Of a stretch of DNA of 64,000 bases, positions 9,799-31,944 are shown in pieces. The notes under the pieces were generated by a model. That model was not told the DNA's origin. It worked only from the letters and a program-made list of their open reading frames with translations, and made no database searches. Source of the stretch: Gemmatimonadales bacterium (lineage in GTDB: Bacteria; Gemmatimonadota; Gemmatimonadetes; Gemmatimonadales; GWC2-71-9); assembly GCA_037189525.1 (NCBI GenBank), contig JBBCJC010000001.1:365-64364 (forward strand), in the 5' to 3' direction. Position 1 is the stretch's first letter. Each line of letters opens with the position of its first letter. Position numbers and translations under genes: made by a program.

Positions 9799-9937
9799 CG
9801 TTGACCCAGCGCGGCCTAGCGGGGCAGGCGTGCGCAGTTCCGGTTCACGAAGCCGCGGACGCGCCCCATATTGGTTGGAGGATGGCGCGGCCGCTCAGTT
9901 TCGTGACGACCGCCGCTGAAACCCAGAATCGTTAACT
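9799..9937 (+). repeat. integron attC-like recombination site, copy 7 (degenerate 5' end)
   Basis: The central and 3' parts match the consensus: AGCCGCGGACGCGCCCCATATTGGTTGGAGGATGGCGCGGCCGC...CGCCGCTGAAACCCAGAATC. It ends GTTAACT (5/7). The RYYYAAC box is not recognisable. Confidence 0.5.
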
Positions 9938-9952
9938 GGCACAACCGTACGT

Positions 9953-10693: not shown

Positions 10694-10811
10694 GGTGCGC
10701 AGCGGGCAGACGCGCGGGGCGCCGGTTTGCGGAGTCGCGACCGCGCCTCCATGTTGATTGGAGGCTGCCGGCTCCGCAAGTGCCTACTGCTTGACACCAG
10801 AGTCATTAGGC
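10685..10811 (+). repeat. integron attC-like recombination site, copy 8 (decayed)
   Basis: The left half matches the consensus: AAGGTGCGCAGCGGGCAGACGCGCGGGG...GTCGCGACCGCGCCTCCATGTTGATTGGAGG. The right inner arm is lost. It ends ATTAGGC (6/7). Confidence 0.5.
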
Positions 10812-11292
10812 CGCAACCGATCTCCTGTCGAGGGACGAATGGATACAGCCACTGAGGATGGTTCCAGCGGATATGAGGCAGTCGCGACATCTACATTGCG
10901 GGACGAGGTACCCGTTCCCGCGTCGGCGATTCGATCGGTGCCGTGGCCGTTAAGGCCTGGGCAAACGCTTTTCCTGACCGGGCGTCGGTCGCAATTCCCT
11001 CGGCGAGGACACCTATAAGCGATTGCTGCGCGATACGGGTCTGGCGTGGGTCGCCGACGCCAAGGACGAGGGCGAGAACTACTATTATTTTGCCGAAAAG
11101 GTGTAGGTCGGATTTCGAACGGACAGGTAAAACCCGGCCGAACCAACCTCCGGTACCTGCGCTGCATCGTCACGAGGCACCGCTGGAAACGTCAGCGCGG
11201 TTCGAGTTCGCCGTATTCGCAGAGCTCGCTCTCGCGGCCGAGCGCGAGCAGTTCCCCATGAAGCTTGACTACTAAAGTTCCTACTGGGTGCA

Positions 11293-11322
11293 GCCCAACA
11301 AGGTGCCGCGGCGGGCAGGGGA
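11293..11322 (+). repeat. truncated attC-like site, copy 9 (R''/L'' arm only)
   Basis: GCCCAACAAGGTGCCGCGGCGGGCAGGGG matches the first ~30 nt of the repeat consensus, and then similarity stops. The stop codon of the convergent gene lies 13 nt further on. Confidence 0.5.
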
Positions 11323-11334
11323 CGGATCACAGTT

Positions 11335-12504
11335 CTATCGACGAGTGACCTCCACGATACGCTGCGATTCGCCGTCATCGGTACCTACTCCCATTCGAAC
11401 AATACTACCTGCCGGGCCGCGAATCATTTCCATGACTCGACTCAACGGCATGCCTTCGATAACAATACCGTTGACCGAATAGATGATGAGGCCGGCAACC
11501 AGGCCGACACGCTCGGCCTCGCCACCCGGAATCACCGAGGCAATCCGGAACAGTCCGGACTCGGCCACCGCCTCGACATTGATTCCGACCAATCCAAACC
11601 CCTCCTTGATACAGTCGACCTTGCTGACATCGTCAGGGGAGGTCCAACGGAAGCCGGGCGCACATTGCCAGGTTCCCTCTTTGCCGCCATGCATCATGTC
11701 CGCCCGGAACGGATGCGGGAAGCCAGGCACCCATTGCCGCGGCGCCACGCCGACCGCGTCACTCTCGATCTGGAAATCGTAGATGATAGCGTCCAGGCAG
11801 GTGGCCGGATCGTCGATGCGCGGCGCGCCAGTCAATTCCAGCGTCTGCGGCGTGACACCGGGAGCTCTGCTGTCATCGAATGTCAGAGAAAATGTCGTCG
11901 GCGCCACCGCCCAGTACATGTCCGCCTGGCCAGGATCCACCGTTCGGACTTCACTTTTCCCGCCCCAGGACAGCCTGTAGCCAATCGGCAGCGTGGTGGG
12001 GTTGCTGACGCAGACAACGGCCAGTTCAGGGCGACGGCCGGACGATACCCTTCCCCGCGCCGGAGCCCCCCCTTTCGCCCCGGTATAGGCACGATTCAGC
12101 TCACCGAGCAGCGCGCCGAGGTCGGACATGGTCTGCCCGGGTTTGAAGAGGGTTCCGCTGTTACGTCCCCATCGAAGATTTTGTACCTTCCCATTTCGGA
12201 CCTCGATGACGAGCTCGGTCCAAAGCCGGCCTTCCAGAAAGCTGGTCCCATGTAACGTCAGCGCTGCATCATAGCCGCCCGAGGTTCGAACGATATTGCT
12301 TACGGCGACCCGTTCGTATTTGGCCGACGGCCACGCAAAAAAGAACAGCATCTCGCCCACGCTGTGGATGAAGCCACGGGCGTGCGAGTCGTCGGACGAT
12401 TGCTGGCCCCACGCAACGGTAAAGGGCACAACCGAAAGACTGAACAGCACCGCGAAGCAATGCGACCATCGTCGGGTCATTCGGGCCGGCAACCAGGCAA
12501 CCAT
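11335..12504 (-). CDS. secreted protein with C-terminal PDZ domain
   Basis: C-terminal GLFRIASVIPGGEAERVGLVAGLIIYSVNGIVIEGMPLSRVMEMIRGPAGSIV is PDZ-like. Signal-like MTRRWSHCFAVLFSLSVVPFTVAWG. Start taken at ATG 12504; ATG 12480 is an alternative. The track start 12642 overlaps the upstream regulator. Confidence 0.7.
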   Translation of the reverse strand: MVAWLPARMTRRWSHCFAVLFSLSVVPFTVAWGQQSSDDSHARGFIHSVGEMLFFFAWPSAKYERVAVSNIVRTSGGYDAALTLHGTSFLEGRLWTELVIEVRNGKVQNLRWGRNSGTLFKPGQTMSDLGALLGELNRAYTGAKGGAPARGRVSSGRRPELAVVCVSNPTTLPIGYRLSWGGKSEVRTVDPGQADMYWAVAPTTFSLTFDDSRAPGVTPQTLELTGAPRIDDPATCLDAIIYDFQIESDAVGVAPRQWVPGFPHPFRADMMHGGKEGTWQCAPGFRWTSPDDVSKVDCIKEGFGLVGINVEAVAESGLFRIASVIPGGEAERVGLVAGLIIYSVNGIVIEGMPLSRVMEMIRGPAGSIVRMGVGTDDGESQRIVEVTRR

Positions 12505-16415: not shown

Positions 16416-16459
16416 GCCGAGCGGACTTGCCTCCTGCTACTCTGAGGACTCCTCAGACC

Positions 16460-18067
16460 ATGACAATCATGCGCGCTACCTACCTGGCACTCTCCCTCGG
16501 GCTTCTCGTCGGCTGCTCATCAACCGAGACTTCGACGCCACCGGCGCCGCCACCGCCGCCGCCGCCCCCGCCACCACCCGCGGCGGCCCCCGCGTTCAGT
16601 TTGGGTGCCACACCGACCTCGATCTCCATCGCCGCCGGATCGAGCGGCACGGTCGCCCTGACCATTACCCGATCCGGCGGGTTCCAGGGTGAGGTGACTC
16701 TCGGCATCGAAGGCGTGCCGAGCGGGGTCACCGCAACCTTCGCTCCGAGTGTGATCGGACCGACGGCAACGACCAGTACGTTGACGGTTGCTCCATCCGC
16801 GGCAACTGCCGCGGCTACGATCCCATTGGTGATCAGAGCCAGTGGAACTGGCATCACCTCACAGACCGCGGGGGTATCCGCCGTCGTGACCGCTGCGCCG
16901 TCCAGTCCCGCTCAAGAATGGACGTTCTGCCGTCCAGACCGGCAACCCGTCTTCTTCGCGGTACGGGACGATCTGGATGGGCCATGGCGGCAGATCACCG
17001 CGTCAGGTGCGAGCACCTTCAATTTTACACTGCCGCGCAGCCCCGCTGCGGTTGCCTTCGTCTATTCGCAAGCTGGTCGATGGGTCACCATGAGCTACCA
17101 GGGCACCAGAGAGGAGCTTCGCGCATTCAGCACTCTCAACTGCCCTGCCGTGTCGAGACGCACCGTGTCGGGAACGGTTGCCGGGCTGGCCGGCAGCGAC
17201 GTCGGTCTGGTCACGATCGATGGTCTCACGAAGAACACCTCCTCGGGGCAACCGGCTTTCAGCCTCGCCGATGTCCCCAGCGGCCCGATCTCGGTGCTGG
17301 CTCAACGCCAGATATTCACGGGCACCGACGAGAACGAGCGGACCGCGGTGGATCGCGTCATCCTGCGCCGTAACATCGACCCCGGCACATCTCCGATGGC
17401 TGTGCTGGACTTCAACTCGTCCGAGGCGTTTGCCCCGGCGGCTGCCTCACTTACCGTCTCCAATGGTACTGTTGGTGCGTACGCCTTTCTCACCAACGTC
17501 ATCGGACGAGGCTACGCCAATGTAGGCGGCCTCCTCCCGGGCGGATTTTCGGATGGGCGGCCGCCGCATACCTATTATGCGATCCCAACCAACCGCCTGC
17601 TCGCCGACGACTGGCAAGGGCTCACGGTTTTCGCGCTCAATCCATTCACGGGTAGCGAACGTTCGATAACCACGATCTTTCGCACGGCGGTCGACCGGAC
17701 CATCGCATTGGGCGCCGAGTTGGCGCCGTACACGACGACCGTGGTAGAACAGGCTCCCCTCCTGCTCCGCGTTTCCGGCCCGATTCAACCCGACTATCCA
17801 GCGCAGTGGGACGTGACCTTTTCTCAAACCGGCGCCAACCCGGCCGTTTTGGTCATCTCCACCGCCGCGGCTCAAGCGAGTTCCAGCACCTATACCATCC
17901 AAGCACCCAACCTGCGCGGCCTTGCGGGCTACGACGCCGCCTGGGAGTTGCGAGCTGGTCTTCGGGTCGAGGTCAACGTGGCCGCGCGATCTCGCGCCGC
18001 CGACAGCACCCTCAGTGAAGGCCTGGTCATCCGGAACGCTCAGTCCACCAGCAACATTCGCCCCTGA
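16460..18067 (+). CDS. hypothetical lipoprotein with poly-proline linker
   Basis: ATG 16460 lies 11 nt after GAGGA. MTIMRATYLALSLGLLVGC is a lipobox, followed by PPAPPPPPPPPPPPAAAP. No recognisable catalytic motif. Confidence 0.7.
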   Translation: MTIMRATYLALSLGLLVGCSSTETSTPPAPPPPPPPPPPPAAAPAFSLGATPTSISIAAGSSGTVALTITRSGGFQGEVTLGIEGVPSGVTATFAPSVIGPTATTSTLTVAPSAATAAATIPLVIRASGTGITSQTAGVSAVVTAAPSSPAQEWTFCRPDRQPVFFAVRDDLDGPWRQITASGASTFNFTLPRSPAAVAFVYSQAGRWVTMSYQGTREELRAFSTLNCPAVSRRTVSGTVAGLAGSDVGLVTIDGLTKNTSSGQPAFSLADVPSGPISVLAQRQIFTGTDENERTAVDRVILRRNIDPGTSPMAVLDFNSSEAFAPAAASLTVSNGTVGAYAFLTNVIGRGYANVGGLLPGGFSDGRPPHTYYAIPTNRLLADDWQGLTVFALNPFTGSERSITTIFRTAVDRTIALGAELAPYTTTVVEQAPLLLRVSGPIQPDYPAQWDVTFSQTGANPAVLVISTAAAQASSSTYTIQAPNLRGLAGYDAAWELRAGLRVEVNVAARSRAADSTLSEGLVIRNAQSTSNIRP

Positions 18068-18224: not shown

Positions 18225-18815
18225 GTGAGCAACTTCCCTCTTCGCGCCGCCATGATCACCGCGCTCGCGGCCGTCCCCCACTTGGCTCGTGCTCAGCAGG
18301 CCGCCATTCCCCCGGCGGCTGAGCAGATCGCCGCGGCGGTGCTGGCAATGCCGCCGGAGATGCGGGCCGGCGCCAGGGTCATGGGCTACGATCAGGCGGG
18401 CCGGTTCGTGGTCTTGCGACAGGGCAAGGAGATGGTCTGTCTTGCCCAGTATCCCAAGGAGCAGCGGTTCCACGTGTCATGCTACCACGAATCGCTGGAG
18501 CCGTTCATGGCGCGGGGGCGCGAACTCCGGGCAGCCGGGACCGATGCCAATCAGATCGACACGGTCCGTTACGCCGAAGCGCGGAGCGGGAAGCTCAAGC
18601 TGCCGTCCGGGCCCGCGGCGCTCTGGCAGCTCTTCGGCGGCACCTTCGACCCCAAGGCTGCGAGTGTGACCGGGGCGCGCAAGCTGTATGTGGTCTACAT
18701 CCCCTATGCAACCGGCGCGTCGACCGGACTGCCGGAGCGCCCTCATGGCAGTGAACCCTGGCTGATGTCGCCGGGCACGCCGAAGGCGCACATCATGTTC
18801 GCGCCAACCATGTAG
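18225..18815 (+). CDS. hypothetical secreted protein
   Basis: GTG 18225 lies 5 nt after GGAGG (18215-18219). Signal-like VSNFPLRAAMITALAAVPHLARAQQ. A partial paralogous remnant lies at 42270-42405. Confidence 0.65.
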   Translation: MSNFPLRAAMITALAAVPHLARAQQAAIPPAAEQIAAAVLAMPPEMRAGARVMGYDQAGRFVVLRQGKEMVCLAQYPKEQRFHVSCYHESLEPFMARGRELRAAGTDANQIDTVRYAEARSGKLKLPSGPAALWQLFGGTFDPKAASVTGARKLYVVYIPYATGASTGLPERPHGSEPWLMSPGTPKAHIMFAPTM

Positions 18816-18836: not shown

Positions 18837-21293
18837 CTAGTCCTGCCGCAGCACGGAGGCCGGCTGCACGGCAATCGCGCGGCGGGTCGGAATCCAGAAC
18901 GCCACCACCGCGCCGAGCGCCACGAGGACAATCACAGCAACGAGGGTGATCGGATCGATCGGGCTCATGCCATAGAGAATCCGCCGGATCAGGAAGCCGC
19001 CCGCCAGAGCCAGCGCGAGCCCCACTGCCCCGCCGCCCACGATCGGCCCCACGCCCTGACGCACCACCAATCCCATCACTCGGCCGGGCGCCGCGCCGAG
19101 GGCGACACGAATGGCGATTTCGCGAGCGCGGCGACCGACGGCAAAGGCGATCACTCCGAACAGCCCGACCGTTGCGAGGATCAGCGCCAGCGCACCGAGC
19201 GCGGTGAGGGTGTAGGAGAGAATTCGCACCGGCAGGAGCGCCTGCTGGACATTCTGCTCGATGGTGCTGGTCTTGACCAGGAGGTTGGGGTCGATCTCCG
19301 CGGCGGCGCGACGGATCGCAGCAATGGTGGCAGCGTCATCGCCCTGGTGACGAACCTGAATGGTCGCCTCCATGTAACGGAGACCTTGGATCGGCCGGTA
19401 GTAGGTGGGCAGCTGGCGCCGACCCGGATCGAGCGAGCGGGTGCTGCTGACGACGCCGATGATCTCCAACACCTCTGATGGCCCGTCCCGGGTGTCGTTG
19501 AGCACCAGTCGCCGGCCGATGGCACGGCCCTGGAGCCGCTGGTCGGCAAAACGCTGGTCGACGATCGCGACCGCGTCGCCGCGTTTGACTTCTGCCTCGC
19601 TGAAGCTCCGGCCCGCGAGAACCCTGATTCCGGCCGCGGCAAAGTAGTCGGCGCCGATTTCGTCGAACGCCACCTGGAAAGACTCACTCGACGTACCCGC
19701 GCCGTCGTCGACCCGAATCACGTTGCTGGCCGAGGAGAGTTCGGGCTGGAGAAAACTGGTGCTGGCGGCGACCACGCCGGGCTCGTTCCGCACCCGTTCG
19801 GTCAGCCGCGCAAAGAACGCTTCAGCTGCGACCGAGTCGTACTGCTGCTGGCGCAGGTCGAAGGAGCCGATCACCAGTCGGTCGAGCGGCTTGCCGACGT
19901 CCATGGTCAGGGCGTGTCGCATGCTGCGCACGACGAGCCCGGCGTTGACCAGCAGCACTACGCAGGCGGCCACCTGCACGCCGACCAGCAGGTGCTGGAT
20001 CCGGAGCCTGGGGCGGCCCGGCGAGGCGAGTCCGTCGCTCTTCAGGCTGGGTGAGAGCTCGAAGCCGGTCGACTGGAGGGCCGGGAGGAATCCGAAGGCG
20101 ATTCCGGAAACGACCGACATCACCGCGGCAAAGGCGAGCACGGCGGGATCGGGGGAGAAGTCGAATTGGAGGTCCATCGAGGCCGGGATGACGAGATCGG
20201 CCAGCCGGGCCGCCCCGAAAGCGAGGGTCAGGCCGAGCGCGCCGCCCAGGAGGCCGAGCCAGGCGCTCTCGACCAGCAGCAGGCGGATGATGCCCTGCCG
20301 GTCGGCGCCGACCGCGCGGCGGATGGCGAATTCCCGCTGCCGCGCCAGGCCGCGGGCCATCAGCATGTTGGCGACGTTGGCGCAGGCGACGATCAGGATT
20401 AACCCGAAGGCAACCCAGAGGAGGGTGAGCGCCGGAACTGCGGTTCGCCGCGCCTTGGGCACGGCCAGGAATGCGGCCGGCACGACGGACGCGTTGATCC
20501 GGGCGCCGGTACCGGCATTAACGGCCCGCTCGGCGAGCAGTTGCAGTTCGGCGGCCATCTGCGCGTCGCCTGCCCCGCCCTTGGCGCGGGCAAAGACCTG
20601 GATCCAGGACACGTTCGTCTGATCGATCAGGAACTCGCCGGGCCGGGTGAGGCGTTGCATGGAGAGCGGAATCCAGAGGTCGGCACCCTGGATCAGAGGG
20701 CCGCGGGTCCGCTCGTCGGCGACGCCGATGACGGTGAACGGGGTGCGGTTCAAGGTCAGGACCGTGCCGAGTACGGCGGGGTCACCGCCCAGCTCGACGG
20801 TCCAGAACCGGTGGCTCAGCACCGCGACTGGGGCGCTGCCCGGGTGGGCGGTCTCGTCGGCGGTGAAGAAGCGGCCCAGGACCGGCCGGGCGCCGAGCAT
20901 GGGGAGAAGGTTGTCGGAGGCGAGTTGGGCCTCGAGGCTCTGGACGGTGCCCTTCTGCCAACTGAGCTGGACCGCGGCGACGCCGGCGAGGTCAGCGGTG
21001 GTCGAGGCGGAGCGGATGGCGGCCAGTTCCTGGAAGGAGAGGCCGCCGTTGGCGTTGAAGGAGGCGCGACCGCCGCCGCCGTGGATTTCGACGAAGAGGT
21101 TTCGCAGGGTCTCCGGCTCGGCCACCGGGAGGGGGCGGAAGAGCACGGCGTGCATGACGGAGAAGAGCGAGGTGTTGAAGCCCATGCCGAGTCCGACGGT
21201 CAGGACGGCGGTGGCCGTGAAGAGCGGGAACCGGGCGAAGGTCCGGAAGGCCAGACGGGTGTCGCGGCCGAGGGCGTCGAGGAGTCGGGTCAT
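18837..21293 (-). CDS. ABC-transporter permease, duplicated MacB-periplasmic/FtsX (ADOP-type), no cognate PadR gene upstream
   Basis: 818 aa. N-terminal LRLAFRTFARFPLFTATAVLTVGLGMGFNTSLFSVMHAVLFRPLPV. Two FtsX-like TM blocks: ACANVANMLMARGLARQREFAIRRAVGA, and the C-terminal REIAIRVALGA... Confidence 0.85.
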   Translation of the reverse strand: MTRLLDALGRDTRLAFRTFARFPLFTATAVLTVGLGMGFNTSLFSVMHAVLFRPLPVAEPETLRNLFVEIHGGGGRASFNANGGLSFQELAAIRSASTTADLAGVAAVQLSWQKGTVQSLEAQLASDNLLPMLGARPVLGRFFTADETAHPGSAPVAVLSHRFWTVELGGDPAVLGTVLTLNRTPFTVIGVADERTRGPLIQGADLWIPLSMQRLTRPGEFLIDQTNVSWIQVFARAKGGAGDAQMAAELQLLAERAVNAGTGARINASVVPAAFLAVPKARRTAVPALTLLWVAFGLILIVACANVANMLMARGLARQREFAIRRAVGADRQGIIRLLLVESAWLGLLGGALGLTLAFGAARLADLVIPASMDLQFDFSPDPAVLAFAAVMSVVSGIAFGFLPALQSTGFELSPSLKSDGLASPGRPRLRIQHLLVGVQVAACVVLLVNAGLVVRSMRHALTMDVGKPLDRLVIGSFDLRQQQYDSVAAEAFFARLTERVRNEPGVVAASTSFLQPELSSASNVIRVDDGAGTSSESFQVAFDEIGADYFAAAGIRVLAGRSFSEAEVKRGDAVAIVDQRFADQRLQGRAIGRRLVLNDTRDGPSEVLEIIGVVSSTRSLDPGRRQLPTYYRPIQGLRYMEATIQVRHQGDDAATIAAIRRAAAEIDPNLLVKTSTIEQNVQQALLPVRILSYTLTALGALALILATVGLFGVIAFAVGRRAREIAIRVALGAAPGRVMGLVVRQGVGPIVGGGAVGLALALAGGFLIRRILYGMSPIDPITLVAVIVLVALGAVVAFWIPTRRAIAVQPASVLRQD

Positions 21294-21602
21294 GATTTGC
21301 CAGGCGGGAGACGATGGCAGGACGTGCCAAGTCGCCCGGAGGTTTCAACCGGGCACGGGAGGATAGTTGGCGCAACAATCACCCCCTCGAAAGCCGGCAT
21401 GTCTTGGGCAGGAACGGGCGAACGAACGGGCATGCAAGACAGGGCAGACCATTGGAGCAAGCCCGGAAGAGGGATAGTAGGAGATGGCCCCTGTTCAACC
21501 GTGAAAAACGATCAGCTCCGATGCAAGGCTAGCGGCAATTACGAACAATGTGTAATCTGACATCTACGAGCCAGGACTAGTTAGGCGCATTGGGGAGATA
21601 CC

Positions 21603-22607
21603 GTGACACCAGAGCGGCTCATTTCCGACACATACGCATACTTCCTCGGTCATGGTTACTGGCCAATGGTCCGATATGTCCAGGGCGAGTATGGGCCGCG
21701 CATTAATGTTCGCGCGATAGCTGCTGAGCTAGGCCGCCACACAATCGTGTGCCAAGATGGAGCAGACGGACGATGCTTTCTCACCCTCGAAGGTCTTGCT
21801 CGGATACCTGAAGCAACGACCGACCTGAATAACCTAGCGCGTGCGGTTGCATTTATCGGCCAACAAATCGGGACCGAATCTCCTACTGAAATTGACTCCT
21901 CCCGCATTGGTACCGCCCTCGAGCTTGAGGGTGTTGCCCTAGCGCGGGTGGGCGCTCTACTCTATCAAGTTAGCCGGCTCTGGTCGGGAGGAAGCTGGCC
22001 GCCCGACAACGTAGGCTTCAAGATTACCCCGACGGAGCAGGCACTCTTTTTCAGAGATATACAGTCGTTCAAAGAGCTTGAGGAGGCTCGAGCGCAGGTA
22101 GAGCGTGATGATCGGCGGATCGGAGAGCTCCTTTCAAGGGCATACTCGCGAGCTCATGGAGCCTCGTCACCGTCTGTTGAGGGTGACGGTCCCTCGCGGT
22201 ACACACTTGCCAACTCCCGCTTGGACGTTGTTCTTCAAAGCGATCTTCTCGAACTGGCAACTGTCCGTTCACTTGGCGCGTGGAAATCTGCTGCAATCCT
22301 TGCTGGCACATGCGTCGAGGCACTCCTATTAGACCTCTGCCAGCGTCATCACGACATGTGTTCCGCTAGGTGGGGTGAAAACTGGGCCAGAAACGTCGGC
22401 ACTGACAAGATGGCGCGCTTTGCGAAAGAAAACGGTTGGATAACTACAGATCATCTGGAGCTGATTGGACCGATTCGACGCTGGCGAAACCTTGTGCATC
22501 CATTTAGCGCTGCGACGACTACGGAACCAACGAAGGAGCTTGCGGATGCGCTTATTGCGGTGCTTTACCTTCTAATGGCAGATTTGGTGCGAAGCGAGGC
22601 GGACTGA
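21603..22607 (+). CDS. hypothetical protein, C-terminal helical domain with a possible HEPN-like R-x5-H motif
   Basis: GTG lies 5 nt after GGGGAG. The region is AT-richer. C-terminal AAILAGTCVEALLLDLC ... IGPIRRWRNLVHPFS ... ALIAVLYLLMADL. The R-W-R-N-L-V-H spacing fits Rx4-6H only loosely. Confidence 0.6.
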   Translation: MTPERLISDTYAYFLGHGYWPMVRYVQGEYGPRINVRAIAAELGRHTIVCQDGADGRCFLTLEGLARIPEATTDLNNLARAVAFIGQQIGTESPTEIDSSRIGTALELEGVALARVGALLYQVSRLWSGGSWPPDNVGFKITPTEQALFFRDIQSFKELEEARAQVERDDRRIGELLSRAYSRAHGASSPSVEGDGPSRYTLANSRLDVVLQSDLLELATVRSLGAWKSAAILAGTCVEALLLDLCQRHHDMCSARWGENWARNVGTDKMARFAKENGWITTDHLELIGPIRRWRNLVHPFSAATTTEPTKELADALIAVLYLLMADLVRSEAD

Positions 22608-22787
22608 TGAGCATGCAGCCAAAGATGCGAGATTCCGGCTCCGGCGTCGCGACCGCGCCCGCGCCCGCGTGATAACCAAGGATCGCCCGACGTCCTGGCT
22701 CCCAATCTGCCGCCACAGAGAGGCAAGACCTCGGGTGCCCCAAAGCGACCAACACTCATCATTTCGCCGGCGACCGCATCTTCGGAC

Positions 22788-25058
22788 ATGAACACCTACA
22801 ATTTCGCAACACTAAACGACAAGGAATTCGAATCCCTAGCCATTGATCTCATTTCGGCAGAGCTTGGGACGCGGCTGGAACGGTTCAAAGCCGGCAAGGA
22901 CAAGGGCGTCGACGGGCGTTGGTTCGCCGGGCCAAATGAGGAAGTGGTTGTTCAGTGCAAACACTGGCTCGTCAGCGGGGTCGACCGCCTGATCGCATAC
23001 CTTGCTCAAACTGAGCGGGCGAAGGTCGAACGCCTCGCATGTACCCGGTATCTCCTTATTACGTCGCTGCCCCTTTCACGCAACGACAAGCAGCGCATCA
23101 CTGCCTCTATGGCGCCGCACTTGGCTTCCGCGAGTGATGTTTTCGGCGCCGAGGACCTAAATGACCTTCTAGGCCGCTATCCAGCTGTTGAGCGTCGTCA
23201 CTATAAGTTATGGCTATCGAGCACGAGCACAATCACGCTCCTCCTTAGCAATGCCATTATCGGTCGAAGCCGTGCCGAGCTAGAGCAAATCAACCACGAC
23301 TCCCCACTATTCGTCCGCACGGCTGACTACGACCGCGCTGCCCATCGGCTACAGGAGAAGCGTACTATCGTGCTAACTGGCGAGCCGGGAATTGGCAAAA
23401 CCACGCTCGCTCGCCAACTGGCCCTTGAACACGCCGCAGATGGATTCCAATTAGTTGTCATCGAGGAGAGCATCAGCGAAGCAGAGAGCGTCTACTCGCC
23501 TGACTCAAAGCAACTGTTCTATTTCGACGACTTTCTCGGCCGTACGTTTCTAGAAGCTCTCAAGGCGAAGCAAGACTCGCACCTCTTGCGATTCATCGAG
23601 CGTGTCGGGCGGGACCCAAGGAAGCGGTTCGTCCTCACCTCTCGCACAAACATTCTCAGCCAAGGCACTGGCTTGTCCGATCTATACAGTGACCGGAAAG
23701 TCCTCACGAGCACATACGAACTTCGCGTCAGCGCCGTTTCTGCCGTCGACAGAGCACGTATTCTGTACAACCACATCTGGCACAGCCAACTATCAGCCCC
23801 ATTTGTTGATGAGCTATACGCTCACAAGCGTTATCGCGAAATCGTGAAGCACCGCAACTTCAACCCACGGTTAGTTGCGTTCGTCGTGGACGCCGCCAAA
23901 GTCGCCGATCTCACCACTGAACGCTACTGGCCCTTCGTACGCCAGACATTCTCCAACCCATCTGACGTATGGTCACATTTCTTCTCGGCCCAACTCAGCC
24001 AAGACGACCGCGACCTGACCTTCCTAGTTGTCTTAGCCGGTGGCCGGATTGGCGAACCAGCCCTGCGAGATGCCTTCTTCGCGATTCCATCCGCTCAGCC
24101 AACCAACGAGGGCCTCAACGACAATCGCTTCTGGAAGGCCGTTCAGCACACGTCCGGGTCCGTCTTGAACCGCAGCCTGATCGATGACACGAGGGTCATC
24201 TACGAGCTATACAATCCTTCGATTACGGACTTTGTGCAATCGAGCCTATCCAGATCTAGGCTATGGCTTTACTACTACCGGCAGCTGCGAACTGTTAAGG
24301 CACTTGGGCGTCTTGAACAGATTCGCGAGCAGCCATTCCTGGGATTGACCGAGTATCGACGGATACTTAGGGGTCTGTACGAAGCTGATGCGAAACGTGG
24401 CCATCCGCGAGATGCGTATAGCTTACGACTGCTTCGCCTTATGATGGACGAAGACTCGGGCGACTCTGAGGCACTCGCCGGCCTCCAGAGCGCGTTGAGT
24501 ACTAGTTTAGACATTGGAGACGATGAACACGCAGTAGATTGCCTTCAACTCATCCTCCAGGCCGACGAGCGTATGGACAGAATCGTGCTGTCGGCGCGCG
24601 CCGATGAAGTCGCTAATTACTTCATGGATGGCTCGCTGCCGCTTGACAAGCCGGATGTCGTCAGCAGGCTACTGGAAACACTGAGACGCCTCGACCTCGA
24701 CTCCTCATGCGAGGACCTTCGCCGACGAGTTTTGCGAGACTGGACGAGAGAGGTAGATCAGCACTTGGCGGACAACAACATACTTGCCTCATATTGCTAT
24801 GAAGAGGAACTCGAGGATGCGACGTCAGAGCTTCGTTCGTTTGTAAACAGCCAGTTCGACGACCTCGGCATCGACCTCTCACAAGCCGAAATTGATGCCA
24901 TATGTGGCCGCGTCGACCTAGACGACATTCTAGCCGAAAACCGTGAAATGGCGGCGCGGGCAGATGATCAAGCAGACCGCTGGCGAGAAGCGCGTTCGTC
25001 GTCTGCACTTACTGACGATGCGGCCATTGACGATATTTTTGAGCGCCCCGAGCGATAG
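22788..25058 (+). CDS. Mrr-like restriction-endonuclease domain fused to a P-loop (STAND-like) NTPase with a helical C-terminal region
   Basis: N-terminal FESLAIDLISAELGTRLERFKAGKDKGVDGRW...VVVQCKHW matches the Mrr_cat pattern (GxD...QCK). Walker A is LTGEPGIGKTTLARQLA. Walker B-like is QLFYFDDFLG. About 400 aa of helical C-terminus follows. Confidence 0.75.
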   Translation: MNTYNFATLNDKEFESLAIDLISAELGTRLERFKAGKDKGVDGRWFAGPNEEVVVQCKHWLVSGVDRLIAYLAQTERAKVERLACTRYLLITSLPLSRNDKQRITASMAPHLASASDVFGAEDLNDLLGRYPAVERRHYKLWLSSTSTITLLLSNAIIGRSRAELEQINHDSPLFVRTADYDRAAHRLQEKRTIVLTGEPGIGKTTLARQLALEHAADGFQLVVIEESISEAESVYSPDSKQLFYFDDFLGRTFLEALKAKQDSHLLRFIERVGRDPRKRFVLTSRTNILSQGTGLSDLYSDRKVLTSTYELRVSAVSAVDRARILYNHIWHSQLSAPFVDELYAHKRYREIVKHRNFNPRLVAFVVDAAKVADLTTERYWPFVRQTFSNPSDVWSHFFSAQLSQDDRDLTFLVVLAGGRIGEPALRDAFFAIPSAQPTNEGLNDNRFWKAVQHTSGSVLNRSLIDDTRVIYELYNPSITDFVQSSLSRSRLWLYYYRQLRTVKALGRLEQIREQPFLGLTEYRRILRGLYEADAKRGHPRDAYSLRLLRLMMDEDSGDSEALAGLQSALSTSLDIGDDEHAVDCLQLILQADERMDRIVLSARADEVANYFMDGSLPLDKPDVVSRLLETLRRLDLDSSCEDLRRRVLRDWTREVDQHLADNNILASYCYEEELEDATSELRSFVNSQFDDLGIDLSQAEIDAICGRVDLDDILAENREMAARADDQADRWREARSSSALTDDAAIDDIFERPER

Positions 25059-25205
25059 TCCTACAAGCGACTCTGGATAAAGGCTGGCGCGGGCGCTCGG
25101 ATTCCTAGCCGCGGCCGCAATCAAATACGGTTGGCTTCTGAGAGCTTGTTTACCCACTGACTTCTCAATACGTTTGGAGGCCAAACAATACCCGGACCTC
25201 CCGAA

Positions 25206-26000
25206 ATGCCCCTCAGTCCGTCCGAGGTTGCAAGTCTTCCTGGCCTCGTAGAAGCGGTCCTTGCGATACACCGCACTTTGGAGCCGGGCCGCTTCCTATG
25301 GTACCGTGGAACCCCCTGCCAGCATTTCAGCTTACTCCCCAAGCTAATGCGTGATGGCAAGCCGCCCGAGGCTGTGTTCGAGCGTGAGTTAAGGCTTCTC
25401 ACCCGTTTTCGCCAGCGAGGGATGGCCTACTGGCCTGCCGGTTACCCTCAGAATGACTGGGAGCACCTTTTCGCCATGCAGCATTTCGGCCTTCCAACAC
25501 GCCTCCTCGACTGGTCAGAAAATCTCTTTGTTGCTACGCATTTTGCGCTCGGAGATCCGGCTCACAGGGAGGCTCACGAGGGGCAGTGCAGACCAACCGT
25601 TTGGTGCATCGACCCCATTGCGTGGAACAGATCAACTTCGGCTCTAGCAGACTACGGCGACGCGATTCACGTTTTAACAACTGCTGACGATGAGCTCGAG
25701 GCATACCGTCCGGTTACGAAACACCGACGCTCTCGTTCTCCGATTGCTATGTATGGCGCCCACAACTCAGCCCGCATCGTATCGCAAAAGGGGACCTTCA
25801 TGGTTTGGGGGAACGAGGTCGTTGGCTTAGAAGGTCTTGCGAGTACACAGATCGCTAGTCTATGGAAGATTGAGCTCACGGAGGAACGGAGTGAGCTGGC
25901 AAAATCTCTTCAGCAGCTCGGCTTTGACGAAACGATGGTGTTTCCGGAGTTGCCGTCCCTGGCGGTAGAACTCAGCCGTACGGAAGGGTGGAAGGCGTAG
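25206..26000 (+). CDS. FRG-domain protein
   Basis: LWYRGTPCQHFSLLPKLMR and FAMQHFGLPTRLLDWSENLFVATHFAL match the FRG-domain signature blocks (xRG ... QHyGlPTrLLDwT) from memory. Confidence 0.7.
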   Translation: MPLSPSEVASLPGLVEAVLAIHRTLEPGRFLWYRGTPCQHFSLLPKLMRDGKPPEAVFERELRLLTRFRQRGMAYWPAGYPQNDWEHLFAMQHFGLPTRLLDWSENLFVATHFALGDPAHREAHEGQCRPTVWCIDPIAWNRSTSALADYGDAIHVLTTADDELEAYRPVTKHRRSRSPIAMYGAHNSARIVSQKGTFMVWGNEVVGLEGLASTQIASLWKIELTEERSELAKSLQQLGFDETMVFPELPSLAVELSRTEGWKA

Positions 26001-27131
26001 ATGAAACCCGCAGACCTTGAGAAGGAGATTTCCGAAGCTCGGCGTTCCATCTCGTCCGATGGCTATGCGATGAGCATTGGCGAGATTACGAACCTCTATC
26101 GCGACGGCGAGCTCATAATTCGACCCGAGTTCCAAAGACTCTTCCGATGGACTTCATCGCAGAAATCTCGCCTCGTCGAGAGCCTCCTTCTCGGCATTCC
26201 GCTACCCTCCATCTTTGTGTCCCAGGCCGAGGCGGGGAACTGGGAGCTGGTTGATGGGCTGCAGCGCATCTCGACTATCCTGCAGCTCCAAGGAGAGCTC
26301 AAGGGCCAGTCCGGCGTCGTTTTGCCGGCGTTGGAGTTAGAGGCGACGAAATACCTACCAAGCCTCGCTGGGCGCACGTGGCACAACGACGACAAGGACA
26401 AGAGTCTCACTGAGGCTCAGCGATTGGACGTGAAGCGCTCGAAGATCGACGTCAAGATCATTAAGCGTGAATCATCCCCTGCCACAAAGTTCGACCTATT
26501 CCAAAGGCTGAACAGTTACGGGACTAGCCTGACACCTCAAGAACTCCGCTCCGCAATGCTTGTTGCAGTCTCTGGAGATTTTTTCAGTTGGCTTGAAGGC
26601 TTGACAAAGCTTAAGTCATTCGAGACGTGTGTCACCTTAAGCGAACGCTTGATGGACGAGCGATTCGACCTTGAGCTTGTGGTACGTTTTCTGGTTTTGC
26701 ACGACTGGCCAACCAAGCGTCTCAGTCTCTCAAATCTTAGGGACCTTCCAAAAATCCTTGACGACGAATCTGTCCAGCTCGCAACAAACTTCCCCATGCG
26801 TGCAGATGAGCTCGAGCAATCATTTCGCTCGACCTTCGACTTTATCGCAGCACGTGGCGGAGAGGACGTGTTCAGAAAATGGGACAGGGGACGTAGGATG
26901 TTCGTTGGTCCATTCTTAAGCACAGCCTTTGAGGTCTTTGCCTTGGGTATTGGCTACCAGTTTTCTCAGCGAGCGCAACCGCGAGACGACCTACTCGAGA
27001 TCGTGAAGGAGTTTTGGTCCAAGCCAGAGATGAGCGGAGGTTTCGCGACAGGTAAGTCAACGGAGCGTCGCTTGGTAGATTATATACCTGTGGGTCGGGC
27101 GATAACCGCGAGCGCGCCACATCAAGCATGA
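26001..27131 (+). CDS. DUF262 (ParB-like / GmrSD N-terminal-type) domain protein without a DUF1524 nuclease domain
   Basis: IRPEFQRLFRW and WELVDGLQRISTI match the DUF262 FQR and DGQQR blocks. At 376 aa, no HNH/His-Me C-terminal motif is seen. The ATG directly follows the TAG of the FRG gene (25998-26000). Confidence 0.75.
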   Translation: MKPADLEKEISEARRSISSDGYAMSIGEITNLYRDGELIIRPEFQRLFRWTSSQKSRLVESLLLGIPLPSIFVSQAEAGNWELVDGLQRISTILQLQGELKGQSGVVLPALELEATKYLPSLAGRTWHNDDKDKSLTEAQRLDVKRSKIDVKIIKRESSPATKFDLFQRLNSYGTSLTPQELRSAMLVAVSGDFFSWLEGLTKLKSFETCVTLSERLMDERFDLELVVRFLVLHDWPTKRLSLSNLRDLPKILDDESVQLATNFPMRADELEQSFRSTFDFIAARGGEDVFRKWDRGRRMFVGPFLSTAFEVFALGIGYQFSQRAQPRDDLLEIVKEFWSKPEMSGGFATGKSTERRLVDYIPVGRAITASAPHQA

Positions 27132-27690
27132 CATCGGGATCCCGAGAGAATGGACAAGTCACGCATCTGTGATCGGCTCAGGCTTCAGCTCATTGGGGAT
27201 TCTGCTTGATTCGGCGTCTCGTGGAACTAGCGGCCGTAAGTGCGTGGTCAACCCCGTAAGCCGTGGCGGAGGGACCATGGAACAGACCAGCCACACGGCG
27301 GCTTTGAGTAGCATATGACGCACCCTCGCTAGCACCACGTTATTGTAGATTTCGCCACGGTCGCGGCCCCACTCCGTTTCCGCACGGAGGCCATGTCGCT
27401 TTCTCCAGGACCAGCATCAGGACAACCTTCGCTGGACCGTCGATTCGTCCCCGCATGTGTCCGAATACCTCGATGTGGTTCGGATAGATACGAAGAGGTC
27501 TCGACACATCGTTGACCGAACCTGATTTGGACGTTGATATGCCCTCAATTGCTGGCCATCAAGTTATCTTGGCCCTGCTGCGGGATACATTCGAAACCGA
27601 GGCCAGCTGCTGGATCGGCCTGGTAATCGAGCATGACCGGAGTTCGAATACCTCCTGTCTCAGCATGGCCCCGACAAAGGCGAGACTGCG

Positions 27691-29457
27691 ATGAGAAGCA
27701 CTCCTGTATCACGAGCGCGAGGGCTCACCCTAACAGCCGGCGCCCTGCTTGCAATCGGCTGCACTCGCCCAGCACCGCCGTCGACAGCTTCGCCACTAGC
27801 AGGTAAGCGGGCGGAAGGGCGAGCAGGCATGGTGTCAGCTTCGCAGCCGGAAGCCACGCTCGTCGGCGTCTCGGTACTGCGCGCAGGCGGCAACGCCGTG
27901 GACGCGGCCGTCGCCACCGCCTTCGCCCTCTCCGTGACCGACCCTTCCCAGACCGGGATCGGCGGCGGTGGCGCAGCAACCGTCTGGATGCCAGCCACCC
28001 AGCGCACCGACCACCTGTCGTTCTACGGCCGAGCCGGCGAACGACCCGAGTGGGGCACCGTCGACACCGACTCCCGCGCACCGGGCCGAGGCGCCGCCAC
28101 GCCAGGCATGGTGAGCGGCCTCCTCACCCTCCACGAGAAGTACGGTCGCCTGCCCCGTGCGCAGGTCATGGCACCCGCGATCGCGCTCGCCCGCGACGGC
28201 TTCACGGTGTCGCCCCTGCTCGCCCGCACCATCACGTCCTCGCGCGCGCGCGTGCTCGAGGAACCCGGCGCCGCCGCGCGGTTCATGCCCGACGGAGAGC
28301 CCCTCCGCCCCGGCGACCGGCTCGTGCAGCCGGAACTCGCCGCCGTGCTCGAACGGATCGCCGCGGTCGGACCCGACGGGTTCTATCGCGGCCCGTTCGC
28401 CGAGCGGCTCGCGCAACACGTCCAGTCCCGCGGCGGCCTCATCACCGTGCGCGACATGGCCTCGTACCGCAGCACCTGGATGCGCCCCCTGTGCACCCCG
28501 TGGCACGGCCTCACCGTGCTCGGCGCGCCGCCACCGATGGGCGGCGCCGTGGTGCTGCAGATGCTCCACCTTGCGGAGCAGTCGGGACTCACCCGCTCGG
28601 CAGGCTACACCGAGTCGCCAGCAACCGCCACGTCGTTTGCGCAGCTGATCCGAATCGCGCAGGTCGACGGACAGCGCTGGCGGGGCGACCCGGCCGCCGT
28701 CGCGGTACCGGCGCGGGGCCTGGCCAGCGCGAGCTTCGCCGCCGCCCGCGCCAGTGAGCTGACCGCGCCGATGCGCGACAGCCTCTCCTCCGGCGATCCG
28801 TGGAATGCCGACGCCGAGTCGCCGAGCGGCGCCTGCGCAGGGCTCGATCCGTATCCTGCGGCGCAGCGCTCAGCGAGCTCGGCGTCCGACGCAGCCGCTG
28901 CCGAATCGGGCGGGGCTGACAGCAGCTTCACCTCGCACCTGAGCGTGGTGGACCGGGACGGCAACGCGGTGTCGATGACCACCACCGTGGGCGTGCTCTT
29001 CGGTTCCGGCGTCTGGGTCGACGGCGTCTGGCTCAACTCGATCGGCCGCAACTTCGACGCGCGCACCCGAGGCACCGATCGCTACACTAACTCCACCATG
29101 TCGCCCACGATCGTGCTCGACGGGCGGAACGTGCGGCTCGTGGTGGGTGCGGCCGGGTCGCAGTACATCCAGCCGGCCATCGCGCAGGTGAGCGTGCGGA
29201 TGCTCGCGTTCGGGGAAGATCCCGCCATGGCGCTCGCTGCGCCGCGCCTCCATCCGAACTGGAATTCGCTGGAGGTGGAGGTCGAGCCCGGGTTTGGGCC
29301 TGACGTGTACAGCGCCCTGGTGGCGCGCGGGTTCCGGCCGCGGTCTCGCGTGGGTGATATCATGTTCGGCGGGGTGCACGCGGTGTACGTGACGCCGGAC
29401 GGGCGGCGGATCGGCGCGGCAGATCCGCGGCGGGACGGCTACGCGGCGGCCCAATAG
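27691..29457 (+). CDS. ggt: gamma-glutamyltransferase
   Basis: GMVSASQPEATLVGVSVLRAGGNAVDAAVATAFALSVTDP and the autoprocessing/nucleophile block TSHLSVVDRDGNAVSMTTTVG are typical of GGT. Confidence 0.85.
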   Translation: MRSTPVSRARGLTLTAGALLAIGCTRPAPPSTASPLAGKRAEGRAGMVSASQPEATLVGVSVLRAGGNAVDAAVATAFALSVTDPSQTGIGGGGAATVWMPATQRTDHLSFYGRAGERPEWGTVDTDSRAPGRGAATPGMVSGLLTLHEKYGRLPRAQVMAPAIALARDGFTVSPLLARTITSSRARVLEEPGAAARFMPDGEPLRPGDRLVQPELAAVLERIAAVGPDGFYRGPFAERLAQHVQSRGGLITVRDMASYRSTWMRPLCTPWHGLTVLGAPPPMGGAVVLQMLHLAEQSGLTRSAGYTESPATATSFAQLIRIAQVDGQRWRGDPAAVAVPARGLASASFAAARASELTAPMRDSLSSGDPWNADAESPSGACAGLDPYPAAQRSASSASDAAAAESGGADSSFTSHLSVVDRDGNAVSMTTTVGVLFGSGVWVDGVWLNSIGRNFDARTRGTDRYTNSTMSPTIVLDGRNVRLVVGAAGSQYIQPAIAQVSVRMLAFGEDPAMALAAPRLHPNWNSLEVEVEPGFGPDVYSALVARGFRPRSRVGDIMFGGVHAVYVTPDGRRIGAADPRRDGYAAAQ

Positions 29458-29535
29458 GTCTCGAGCGCGCACGGACAAGCGATGGGATCGATGCGAAGCT
29501 ATCTATCTCGACTACGGATTCGGCACGGACAAACG

Positions 29536-30066: not shown

Positions 30067-30810
30067 GTGACCGGGCCAATACGCACCCCGAAACTGAAGG
30101 GCCGATCAGTGAAGCGCTTTCTCGTTGCGATTCCGACCACTGATGGCGGCGGCGTTGAAGTCCATCCGATGAAAGAGTGGCTTCGCCAGAACCCGTCCGA
30201 AGTACCCCCGGGATCGCACCCGACAACCGACACATCTCACCGACTTCGCGATGCACTTCGGAAAGCCGGCTGGGTTGTACAGGAGAATGAACACGAAGTC
30301 AGACTGGTTCGCACCACGGATTCGTCGACGCTATCCCAAATTTCGCAGGTTTTGGGCGACGAGTCAGAAGACGGGGAGGACACGGACGACGCCGGAGATC
30401 CCAGCTTTGGACTCGAGTATCAGTTGCGTGATTTTCTGGCTCAGAATATCGAGCGCTTCCCCATTGATGGGACAACGCTCAAGCTGTATGTCGACCCGAC
30501 GGGCCGCGACGGCGTGGAATATCCCACCGATGTCGGACCCATCGATATCCTGGCGGTCGACCCCATGGACAACTTCGTCGTCTTTGAGTTGAAGCGTGCA
30601 CGAGTAGCCGACAGGGCCGTAGGACAATTAGCACGGTATATGGGCTGGGTCAAGCACACGATTGGCCGCGATCGCAACGTTAAGGGAGTGATCGTCGCAA
30701 AGACTATTGATAAACGGCTTAGATACGCGGCGACCGTAGTGCCATGCGTCACGCTGCTCGAGTATACCGTTGAGTTCCACCTTCACCCTGCTCACGACAT
30801 TGGAACATAG
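30067..30810 (+). CDS. NucS-like PD-(D/E)xK nuclease-family protein
   Basis: The C-terminal block GPIDILAVDPMDNFVVFELKRARVADRAVGQLARYMGW fits the D...(D/E)xK...QxxxY pattern of the NucS/DUF91 catalytic domain. The local sequence is AT-richer. Start uncertain: GTG 30067, GTG 30109 or ATG 30169. Confidence 0.6.
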   Translation: MTGPIRTPKLKGRSVKRFLVAIPTTDGGGVEVHPMKEWLRQNPSEVPPGSHPTTDTSHRLRDALRKAGWVVQENEHEVRLVRTTDSSTLSQISQVLGDESEDGEDTDDAGDPSFGLEYQLRDFLAQNIERFPIDGTTLKLYVDPTGRDGVEYPTDVGPIDILAVDPMDNFVVFELKRARVADRAVGQLARYMGWVKHTIGRDRNVKGVIVAKTIDKRLRYAATVVPCVTLLEYTVEFHLHPAHDIGT

Positions 30811-30918: not shown

Positions 30919-31944
30919 GTGCGTCACCTTTTCGGGGATGCAGTTCAGAGCCTACGTAGAACACCCCTGATCACCGCTGCCATCGTCCTTACCCTGGCAA
31001 TCGCAATTGGGGCGAATACCGCGATCTACTCGGCAATCCACGCTGTCCTGGTTCGGGACCTTCCCTACCCCGGTCCAGACCGGATCGTCCGGGTCGCCGC
31101 CACGTTCCACCCGTCGGTTCGGCTCCCGGGATTTTCGGGTGCTGGGGGCCAAGACGGCGAAGCTCACTTCTCTGATGCCGGGTACTGGCACTTCGTCCGA
31201 ACCAACCGCTCGTTCGCCGAGATGGGGGCTTACCGCCCGGGCCACCAGTCAACGCCGCTGGCAGGTAACGGCATTCCCAACCCGCTCCAAGTCTCGATGG
31301 CCCAGCTGTCCGCCAGCGCGTTCCGAGTGCTGGGCGTTCATCCAGTGGTTGGCCGGCTACCGACCGCCGAGGAGGATCTGCCGACAGGACCACGGGTAGC
31401 GCTGCTGAGCCACCGACTCTGGGCCAGCCAGTTTGGGTCGGACCCGGCAATCCTCGGCCGCACCATCCAGCTCTGGGGAACGGCGACCGAGGTGATCGGG
31501 GTGATGCCGGCCAGCTACACTTTTCCCTTCCCAGAAACCGATGTGTGGATTCCGCTTCGCCTCAACCCTGCAAGCCAACTCCTAGGCCATAACATCGCGG
31601 CCATCGCTCGACTCCTCCCGAATGCCACGACGACCTCAGCAACCGCTGATGCGAAGCAATTGATCGCTCAGTTTGATAGAATCGGGTATCCGGCGCGGTG
31701 GCTCACGACCGTCTTCGACGGAAACGCCAGGGTCTGGACGCTCAAAGAAGACATCGTCGGTAACGTTCGCCGGCCTATGCTGCTGGTCTTTGGTACCGTG
31801 GACTTCGTACTTCTCATCGCCTGCGGCAACGTTGCCAACCTGATGCTCGTCCGTGCTGAGCAGAGGCACCGGGAGTATGCAGTACGGCAGGCGTTGGGAG
31901 CCGGCAGAGGGTGCTCGTTCAGATCCGCGGGCTTCGGCGTATGA
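30919..31944 (+). pseudogene. truncated ADOP-type ABC permease (N-terminal ~330 aa only)
   Basis: GTG lies 8 nt after GGAGGT. The N-terminus and MacB-like periplasmic domain are typical. Similarity ends after CGNVANLMLVRAEQRHREYAVRQALGAGRG, with stop at 31944. The intact paralogues in this window are 818 and 895 aa. Confidence 0.65.

Follow-up and report, generated by a model that had tools for sequence, protein, structure and literature searches.

DUF262 proteins serve as sensor and nucleoside triphosphatase (NTPase) in the GmrSD, SspE, Menshen and PD-T4-2 systems (PMC12065111, PMC10952713), and PD-T4-2 (Vassallo et al. 2022) is composed of a DUF262 protein and a HEPN protein (PMC10952713). 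The Frg domain has been placed in the ADP-ribosyltransferase (ART) superfamily and predicted to act as an antiviral effector, possibly as an NADase (PMC9503650). In addition, nSTAND3 is the NTPase of the experimentally studied Avs5, which carries a SIR2 effector (10.1101/2025.07.08.663546). Domains of these kinds come together in the locus described here, an island at positions 21294 to 27690 of a 64,000-nt stretch of contig JBBCJC010000001.1 from the genome of a soil bacterium of the Gemmatimonas group (this whole 64-kb stretch is called the window below). The island contains four genes, encoding a modular protein with a HEPN-like domain (gene 1), an Mrr-nSTAND3 protein (gene 2), an FRG-domain protein (gene 3) and a DUF262 protein (gene 4). 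We conclude that it is probably a horizontally acquired island that juxtaposes three autonomous candidate antiviral modules, referred to as module A (gene 1), module B (gene 2) and module C (genes 3 and 4).

A low-G+C island with three candidate modules

The stretch from 21294 to 27690 is the strongest compositional outlier within the window. Its G+C content equals 55.9%, compared to 64.8% in the remainder and approximately 64 to 65% for the window as a whole, and lies below that of all 449 other windows of the same length (minimum, 60.0%; mean, 64.3%; standard deviation, 1.9%). In sliding 500-nt windows, the G+C content is 51 to 59% between 21.3 and 27.7 kb, in contrast to 65 to 71% on the left flank and 72 to 75% on the right. 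The contrast is sharpest in the third position of codons, where the G+C content (GC3) is 0.54, 0.62, 0.61 and 0.62 for genes 1 to 4, respectively. Of the adjacent genes, the MacB/FtsX-type permease gene to the left reaches 0.87, and the gene for gamma-glutamyltranspeptidase (GGT; 27691-29457) to the right reaches 0.85.

An earlier note on this DNA, made by a model from the letters alone (the original prediction), had proposed an AT-richer candidate antiphage island of four co-oriented defence-type genes. The sliding-window values and the lower GC3 agree with the AT-richer island, and the four open reading frames (ORFs) were confirmed on the plus strand (Table 1). However, the 43 to 47% G+C that had been counted by hand is too low: 60-nt lines within 22.8 to 27.1 kb average 55.3% (standard deviation, 5.5), and 7% of them lie at or below 47%. 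The values quoted for the flanks, 65 to 82%, are about right (60 to 78%). Pfam searches upheld the Mrr-like nuclease fused to a STAND-like NTPase as well as the FRG and DUF262 calls. In a PADLOC profile check, three of the four proteins match known or candidate defence models (PDC-S73, PDC-S15 and NsnA/PD-T4-2_A), and none of the four is assigned to a housekeeping family.

Table 1. Features of the island, with positions in the 64-kb window
Feature	Position	Strand	Basis or remark
Left non-coding boundary	21294..21602	.	309 nt, 57% G+C; G+C drops from ~69% to ~50% across the stretch
Gene 1, 334 aa, uncatalogued modular protein	21603..22607	+	N-terminal sensor-like and C-terminal HEPN-like domain
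Gene 1 N-domain, aa 1-~195, winged-helix-like	21603..22187	+	AlphaFold2 (AF2) model; fusions in relatives
Gene 1 C-domain, aa ~200-334, all-helical, HEPN-like	22200..22607	+	Foldseek; R295/H299/P300 invariant
Gene 2, 756 aa, PDC-S73 member	22788..25058	+	Mrr nuclease and nSTAND3 NTPase in a single gene
Mrr-type PD-(D/E)xK nuclease domain, aa ~8-164, putative effector	22809..23279	+	Pfam Mrr_cat 4.8e-07
nSTAND3 P-loop NTPase domain, aa 175-332, putative switch	23310..23783	+	Pfam nSTAND3 4e-46
Gene 2 C-terminal region, aa ~333-756, putative ligand sensor	23784..25058	+	No Pfam domain
Gene 3, 264 aa, FRG-domain protein, putative effector	25206..26000	+	Pfam FRG 1e-19; PDC-S15 2.5e-36
Gene 4, 376 aa, ParB-like DUF262 NTPase with NsnA-type C-region	26001..27131	+	Putative DNA sensor or switch
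Right non-coding boundary	27132..27690	.	559 nt, 57% G+C; short ORFs only

The genes are separated by 180 nt (genes 1 and 2) and 147 nt (genes 2 and 3), and genes 3 and 4 abut. The exact island proteins are present in one NCBI contig (905,749 bp) and one Logan assembly of SRR27999909, and all four are singletons at 90% identity. We consider the island probably foreign because its G+C content and GC3 are outliers, its proteins are singletons at this identity, gene 4 has proteobacterial relatives, and cassettes of the same kind are low in G+C in other hosts as well. The three modules are regarded as independent of each other, and not as one system, because gene 1, gene 2 and the gene 3-4 pair never co-occur elsewhere in the loci examined. 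In particular, none of 80 metagenomic loci encoding relatives of gene 4 holds a relative of gene 1 or gene 2. The antiphage island of the original prediction is thereby retained as a defence-type, probably acquired cluster, but it resolves into three modules and is neither four separate items nor one unit. These modules lie within 5.5 kb, with a PDC-S02-like nuclease 3 kb further on. Homology and genomic context point to a defence role, and the modules are candidates in this respect.

Neither the FRG-DUF262 pair nor the gene 1-type protein is described as such in PADLOC 2.0 or in the literature searched. A further-reaching reading, to which we subscribe only tentatively, is that the island contains two uncatalogued immune systems. 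The first, FRG-DUF262, would combine a DNA-sensing NTPase with an ART-superfamily effector, obtained by a PD-T4-2-like effector swap. The second, the gene 1 family with approximately 2,450 representatives, would consist of single-protein systems in which an as yet undescribed winged-helix-like sensor is joined to interchangeable effectors of the kinase, TIR, GGDEF or HEPN type. Defence islands are ordinary as a class, and the value of this one lies in such uncatalogued modules. It also documents defence-gene traffic into the Gemmatimonadota, and the modules, at 1.0, 2.3 and 1.9 kb, are small enough for direct synthesis.

The FRG-DUF262 cassette

The Pfam FRG model matches gene 3 with 71.7 bits, compared to a cut-off of 25. 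The (F/Y)RG motif corresponds to W32-Y33-R34-G35, of which W, R and G are invariant among the relatives. Further invariant residues include R63, T66-R67-F68-R69-Q70, Q92-H93, T98-R99-L100-L101-D102-W103, N187, R190 and Q194. Gene 4 matches Pfam GmrSD_N (3.2e-25), NsnA over residues 15 to 343 (2.8e-50) and, to a lesser extent, PD-T4-2_A over residues 26 to 235 (3e-23). It carries the three DUF262 motifs (Q45-R46...W50, D85-G86-x-Q88-R89 and F167...N171); these follow the definition in PMC12065111 and are all invariant. Sequence searches of solved structures with genes 3 and 4 returned no meaningful match.

The ATG of gene 4 lies directly 3' of the gene 3 TAG, and relatives of gene 4 that are 60 to 70% identical occur in Alpha-, Beta- and Gammaproteobacteria. 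Among the 80 metagenomic loci, 62 have room upstream of the DUF262 gene. A gene 3 relative is located 10 to 25 nt upstream in every locus with room in which gene 4 identity is at least 57%, and an iterated hidden Markov model places an FRG partner directly upstream in 22 of the 62. The identity of the FRG protein tracks that of the DUF262 protein, falling from 64% to 34%. In 43 to 44 other loci, the gene directly downstream of the DUF262 gene is a conserved ORF of approximately 215 to 270 aa, whose product is a HEPN protein of the RiboL-PSP/MAE_28990 family (Pfam, 1e-27 to 1e-40) with the motif RRNTIAHG. No locus contains both FRG and HEPN partners, which are thus mutually exclusive.

Related cassettes also turn up on mobile DNA. 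A plasmid of Hymenobacter (Bacteroidota) has an annotated FRG-DUF262 pair, and a second one resides on a Ralstonia solanacearum megaplasmid (CP052129.1, 91155-93075; our locus L117), with an IS5-family transposase gene on each side. This bracketing suggests a composite-transposon-like vehicle. In locus L037, the pair sits between a MobA/MobL relaxase and a coupling protein of the TrwB type from a type IV secretion system. The sibling DUF262-HEPN pair is found on two Corynebacterium plasmids, one of them adjoining a type II restriction-modification system. The cassettes have a lower G+C content than the DNA around them in each of the hosts checked. Genes 3 and 4 form one translationally coupled cassette that is conserved in several phyla, on plasmids and in conjugative elements. 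At the level of sequence comparison, this cassette displays obligate pairing, co-evolution of its two proteins and an either-or exchange of FRG for a HEPN nuclease as partner.

The known systems closest to the cassette share parts of it. The DUF262-HEPN pairs have the domain composition of PD-T4-2, i.e., DUF262 plus a PF18735 HEPN protein (PMC10952713), and the cassette is, by this composition, an apparent effector-swapped sibling of such PD-T4-2-like pairs. Gene 4 itself resembles PD-T4-2 through its PD-T4-2_A match, which is weaker than that to NsnA. However, its partner in the window is an FRG gene upstream instead of a HEPN (PF18735) gene downstream, and no HEPN gene adjoins gene 4. Menshen (NsnABC), reportedly described by Millman et al. 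in 2022, is likewise similar, as gene 4 is NsnA-like over nearly its whole length and has the QRxxxW, DGxQR and FxxxN motifs. It differs in that neither an NsnB ABC ATPase (with DUF3696) nor NsnC follows gene 4, as the next 559 nt contain short ORFs only and no such gene is called in Logan loci L001 and L033, and an FRG gene precedes it instead. With GmrSD, BrxU and SspE, gene 4 has the N-terminal ParB-like DUF262 NTPase domain (GmrSD_N) in common, but Pfam detects no DUF1524/HNH domain in any island protein, and the role of effector presumably falls to the FRG protein, which is encoded separately. An assignment of genes 3 and 4 to Menshen, PD-T4-2 or GmrSD was ruled out, because the cassette lacks the partner genes or domains that define these systems. 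No paper in the literature searched deals with FRG together with DUF262.

The sibling DUF262-HEPN loci carry the numbers L046, L050, L057, L063-L066 and L070-L113 in our set, to which L114 and L115 can be added. Their DUF262 proteins score higher on NsnA than on PD-T4-2_A, and their HEPN partners are unrecognised by PD-T4-2_B. Pairs of this kind may be under-detected by current defence annotation.

In module C, foreign and possibly modified DNA would be sensed by the DUF262 protein, a ParB-like NTPase that has an NsnA-type C-domain. This sensor would then license the FRG protein, which the literature predicts to be a NADase or ADP-ribosylating effector. These sensor and effector roles, as well as the chemistry, are putative assignments. 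As a discrete, mobile and co-evolving unit, the cassette is a natural effector-swap counterpart of the DUF262-HEPN pairs. It offers a comparative handle on the signalling from DUF262 sensor to effector, which was left unresolved in the Menshen analysis (PMC12065111), and it would give the FRG domain its first functional context.

The company that the cassettes keep also fits a different explanation, in which the modules are selfish addiction or competition genes of a decayed mobile element. They would then encode toxin-like nucleases and NADases that serve stabilisation or the exclusion of rival plasmids, and would not be primarily antiphage. Cassettes indeed ride plasmids, IS-flanked segments and conjugative elements, and HEPN, PD-(D/E)xK and ART domains are also used in toxin-antitoxin and polymorphic-toxin systems. 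Moreover, the three modules are phage-defence candidates by inference. However, defence genes typically ride such elements too, and the context therefore does not discriminate. There is no sign of a small partner gene of the antitoxin or immunity type, the modules have sensor-switch-effector architectures, and antiphage activity has been demonstrated for the DUF262 relatives PD-T4-2, Menshen and GmrSD (PMC10952713, PMC12065111). We regard the selfish explanation as unlikely and continue with three candidate antiviral modules.

The single-gene modules

Gene 2 is a plain member of PDC-S73. It matches this PADLOC model with an E-value of 6.3e-233 and 773.8 bits, residues 1 to 753 aligning to positions 1 to 751 of the 752-position model, and it corresponds to PDC-S73 end to end, with the same length and, in varied contexts, standing by itself. 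Its homologues number more than 2,124, occur in many phyla and have a conserved length of approximately 750 aa. In 19 diverse homologues, the nuclease core (D42 and Q56-x-K58) is invariant, as are Walker A (G198-x2-G201-x-G203-K204-T205) and Walker B (D247-D248). The N-terminal region resembles the restriction endonuclease N-domain of proteins associated with prokaryotic Argonautes (PADLOC, 1.7e-39). The C-terminal region is conserved up to about residue 480 and poorly conserved thereafter, with N476-P477-D481 and L509 as the last invariant positions before F751 and R753. A sequence search of solved structures with gene 2 gave no meaningful match, and PDC-S73 is mentioned in no paper of the literature searched.

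The neighbourhoods of five gene 2 relatives (including L005, L006 and L008) are mutually unrelated and lack genes 1, 3 and 4. The closest relative, 78% identical, is encoded at a different locus, beside the dcw cluster, in another metagenome-assembled genome (MAG) of the Gemmatimonadetes. The DNA surrounding these gene 2 relatives is richer in G+C than the relatives themselves. In L008, a Hypoth_Ymh protein (10531-11433, minus strand) lies beside the PDC-S73 relative, and the same domain is the one most often fused to a gene 1-type N-domain; this may be a coincidence or a loose HEPN-STAND association.

In its architecture, gene 2 is similar to the Avs (AVAST) proteins, with an N-terminal effector, a central STAND NTPase and a variable C-terminal region. 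It differs from them in that it has no PADLOC Avs match and no detected C-terminal repeat family, and in that its effector is Mrr, in contrast to the SIR2 of Avs5. It is also only about half the length of typical Avs proteins, among which Avs4 is an example with an Mrr-like nuclease. These comparisons establish the architecture of module B, its intact catalytic motifs and its autonomy. Judged from its sequence, gene 2 is a self-contained single-gene module of a candidate family, with an apparently Avs-like logic. In such a scheme, drawn by analogy from Avs proteins that have been characterised, the predicted role of the variable C-terminal region is binding of a phage-derived ligand, upon which the nSTAND3 NTPase would assemble into oligomers and activate the Mrr-type nuclease at the N-terminus for DNA cleavage.

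Gene 1 matches no Pfam, PADLOC or NCBIfam model. While a word-indexed search recovered 3 relatives, an exhaustive profile search recovered 2,451 cluster representatives, 58 of them at E<=1e-30. The latter search also found the two halves of the protein (approximately residues 1 to 195 and 200 to 335) separately. Thirty relatives share the N-domain only, and their C-terminal partners include Hypoth_Ymh (7), a Ser/Thr kinase (Pkinase; 5), a CAP12/Pycsar-type TIR (2), Abi_C (2) and GGDEF (1). In PADLOC, the kinase parts match PD-T4-6 and the TIR parts match PDC-S35, and the N-domain matches nothing. The relatives thus show a common N-domain that is joined, as far as domain matches tell, to swappable effectors. 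No gene 1 relatives were found in viral contigs, plasmids or phages. A 55%-identical homologue (L002) adjoins a Mu-type transposase and has no STAND neighbour.

The AF2 model of gene 1 has a mean predicted local distance difference test (pLDDT) score of 76, with H-H-H-beta-beta units in the N-domain, only helices in the C-domain and a motif loop that scores below 50. In Foldseek, the N-domain gives weak MarR and winged helix-turn-helix matches only. The C-domain matches solved HEPN proteins, with 2hsb as the first (probability, 0.99; TMt, 0.70; root-mean-square deviation, 3.6), followed by 1wol (0.98; TMt, 0.64) and 1o3u (0.97; TMt, 0.62). R295, H299 and P300 are invariant in 26 sequences of the family. 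An R-x6-H spacing would result from R292, a residue whose invariance is confined to the four closest sequences. Weak matches to DUF4145, below the cut-off, occur in 3 of 35 distant relatives. The possible HEPN-like protein of the original prediction is therefore favoured by the predicted fold and the invariant R-x3-H-P motif but not by Pfam, PADLOC or NCBIfam profiles. Compared to abortive-infection (Abi) proteins with HEPN domains (Abi_C, Hypoth_Ymh and DUF4145), the C-domain has a similar helical fold, and Abi_C and Hypoth_Ymh take the equivalent position in relatives. It differs in having no HEPN Pfam match, in its R-x3-H spacing and in a negative comparison with the RiboL-PSP profile.

We interpret gene 1 as an independent single-protein module consisting of a sensor and a swappable effector, whose HEPN-like output is divergent in this case. 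Of all our assignments, this one is the least certain. The N-domain may be a sensor or a nucleic-acid-binding module, and the C-domain a putative RNase effector. In module A, the winged-helix-like N-domain would act as sensor or adaptor and control the HEPN-like C-domain. Once activated by a presumed trigger, the latter is predicted to cut RNA, following an abortive-infection logic. Gene 1 in this way exposes an uncatalogued modular family, in which outputs of the kinase, TIR, GGDEF and HEPN type are attached to a common N-domain. Families with such swappable outputs have repeatedly proved to be new immune sensors.

The four genes could also be read as one integrated four-component defence system, in which the HEPN-like protein and the STAND nuclease act together with FRG-DUF262. 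They are co-oriented and contiguous, with similar G+C content and GC3, and genes for a sensor, an NTPase and an effector are frequently brought together in defence systems. This is contradicted by the five gene 2-relative loci and the 80 gene 4 loci described above, in which the other genes are missing, and by the gene 1 relative that stands alone beside a transposase. The spacing points in the same direction, as the gaps on either side of gene 2 contrast with the abutting genes 3 and 4. We consider an integrated system highly improbable and retain three independent modules.

Borders, acquisition and flanking genes

The original prediction reported unusually long non-coding borders. Both stretches are real, but only the 559-nt stretch belongs to the longest tenth of the intergenic lengths obtained from a crude gene call (median, 72 nt; 90th percentile, ~480 nt), whereas the 309-nt stretch is unexceptional, and several other intergenic stretches of the window exceed 559 nt. 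A gene remnant in the 559-nt tail, such as the HEPN partner of the sibling loci, was searched for by comparing the tail with every ORF and the DNA of the 80 related loci in blastx and blastn, yielding nothing. In agreement with the absence of an integrase, tRNA or obvious direct repeats claimed earlier, scans of the island and its borders found no tRNA or Rfam families. Only short, chance-level repeats were detected at the borders, and no integrase-like ORF was called inside or beside the island in the window or in Logan loci L001 and L033.

In an empty-site test, the flanking GGT gene was searched against 185,579 species genomes. The GGT orthologues are 76 to 89% identical and originate from MAGs assigned to Gemmatimonas or Gemmatimonadales. 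All four island genes are missing from each of 23 related GGT loci, but the flanks are non-syntenic and none of these relatives offers a clean empty site. Homology to the relatives is limited to the GGT coding sequence (27740-29458), starting at 27738 to 27744. Upstream of GGT, approximately 7 kb of synteny is common to L010, L012 and L015, and not to the window or L011. Downstream, nothing is common to the window, L010, L011, L012 and L015. The island abuts a synteny breakpoint, and GGT lies at a recurrent rearrangement point in the Gemmatimonas group. Defining the island borders by GGT comparison was ruled out, since the GGT coding sequence alone is common to the relatives. The island may have arrived by a mobile element whose own genes are gone from the locus, as suggested by the company of the cassettes elsewhere.

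Several observations weigh against an acquired island of candidate antiviral modules. With no integrase, tRNA, direct repeats or clean empty site among the relatives, acquisition is argued from composition and phyletic pattern. A promoter and terminator scan, which bears on the transcription units, gave counts at or below shuffle expectation and is uninformative for this phylum. PDC-S73 and PDC-S15 are themselves computational candidate families, and the gene 1 family is absent from the defence catalogue searched. For gene 1, the Foldseek E-values are non-significant (0.1 to 0.5 for the whole model, with HEPN matches at 0.36 to 0.45). Moreover, R295-x3-H299 is one residue shorter than the canonical R-x4-6-H, and hhalign of the family against the RiboL-PSP HEPN gives a probability of 0.1. 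For gene 2, no Avs model is among the 10 PADLOC families matched at E<=0.1, and Pfam matches no repeat family, TPR-like or other, beyond residue 332. For gene 3, the single-sequence model has a pLDDT of 31.7 and sequence searches give no solved relative, which bears on the ART fold of FRG.

The absence of border features and of an empty site could also be expected of native, vertically inherited DNA in which local constraints lower the G+C content of housekeeping or regulatory genes, but this origin is the most improbable of those considered, given that GC3 is 25 to 30 points under that of the adjacent genes, gene 4 is 60 to 70% identical to proteobacterial proteins, the nearest relative of gene 2 (78%) is at a different locus, the 23 related GGT loci lack the island genes, and neither Pfam nor NCBIfam matches a housekeeping family. 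We therefore maintain that the island was probably acquired horizontally.

The Logan assembly of SRR27999909 (L001/L033) ends within GGT at approximately 28563, about 870 nt beyond the island; this break could reflect strain heterogeneity or a repeat. Milder G+C depressions (approximately 59 to 61% in 2-kb windows) occur at 4000 to 12000 and 42000 to 44000. To the left of the permease gene, the plus-strand genes at 16427-18067 and 18225-18815 have no Pfam or PADLOC match. The product of the former is 546 aa by longest ORF and 535 aa as called in Logan locus L001, with a near-native GC3 of 0.72. The latter product is 196 aa as called in L001, within a longer ORF of 297 aa.

To the right, past the GGT gene with its native composition and 3 kb beyond the island, the plus-strand gene at 30067-30810 is a fifth defence-type gene of low G+C content. 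It encodes a NucS_C/PD-(D/E)xK nuclease domain (Pfam, 4.8e-11) with a PDC-S02 match (2.1e-32), at 56.9% G+C and a GC3 of 0.63. The variable or defence region may reach to approximately 30.9 kb, with GGT embedded in it. The next ORF (30919-31944, plus strand; 341 aa) contains MacB_PCD and an FtsX domain of which just the initial part is present. Set against the duplicated MacB/FtsX permease of 818 aa (18837-21293), this ORF appears truncated, and it could be a split gene or a pseudogene.

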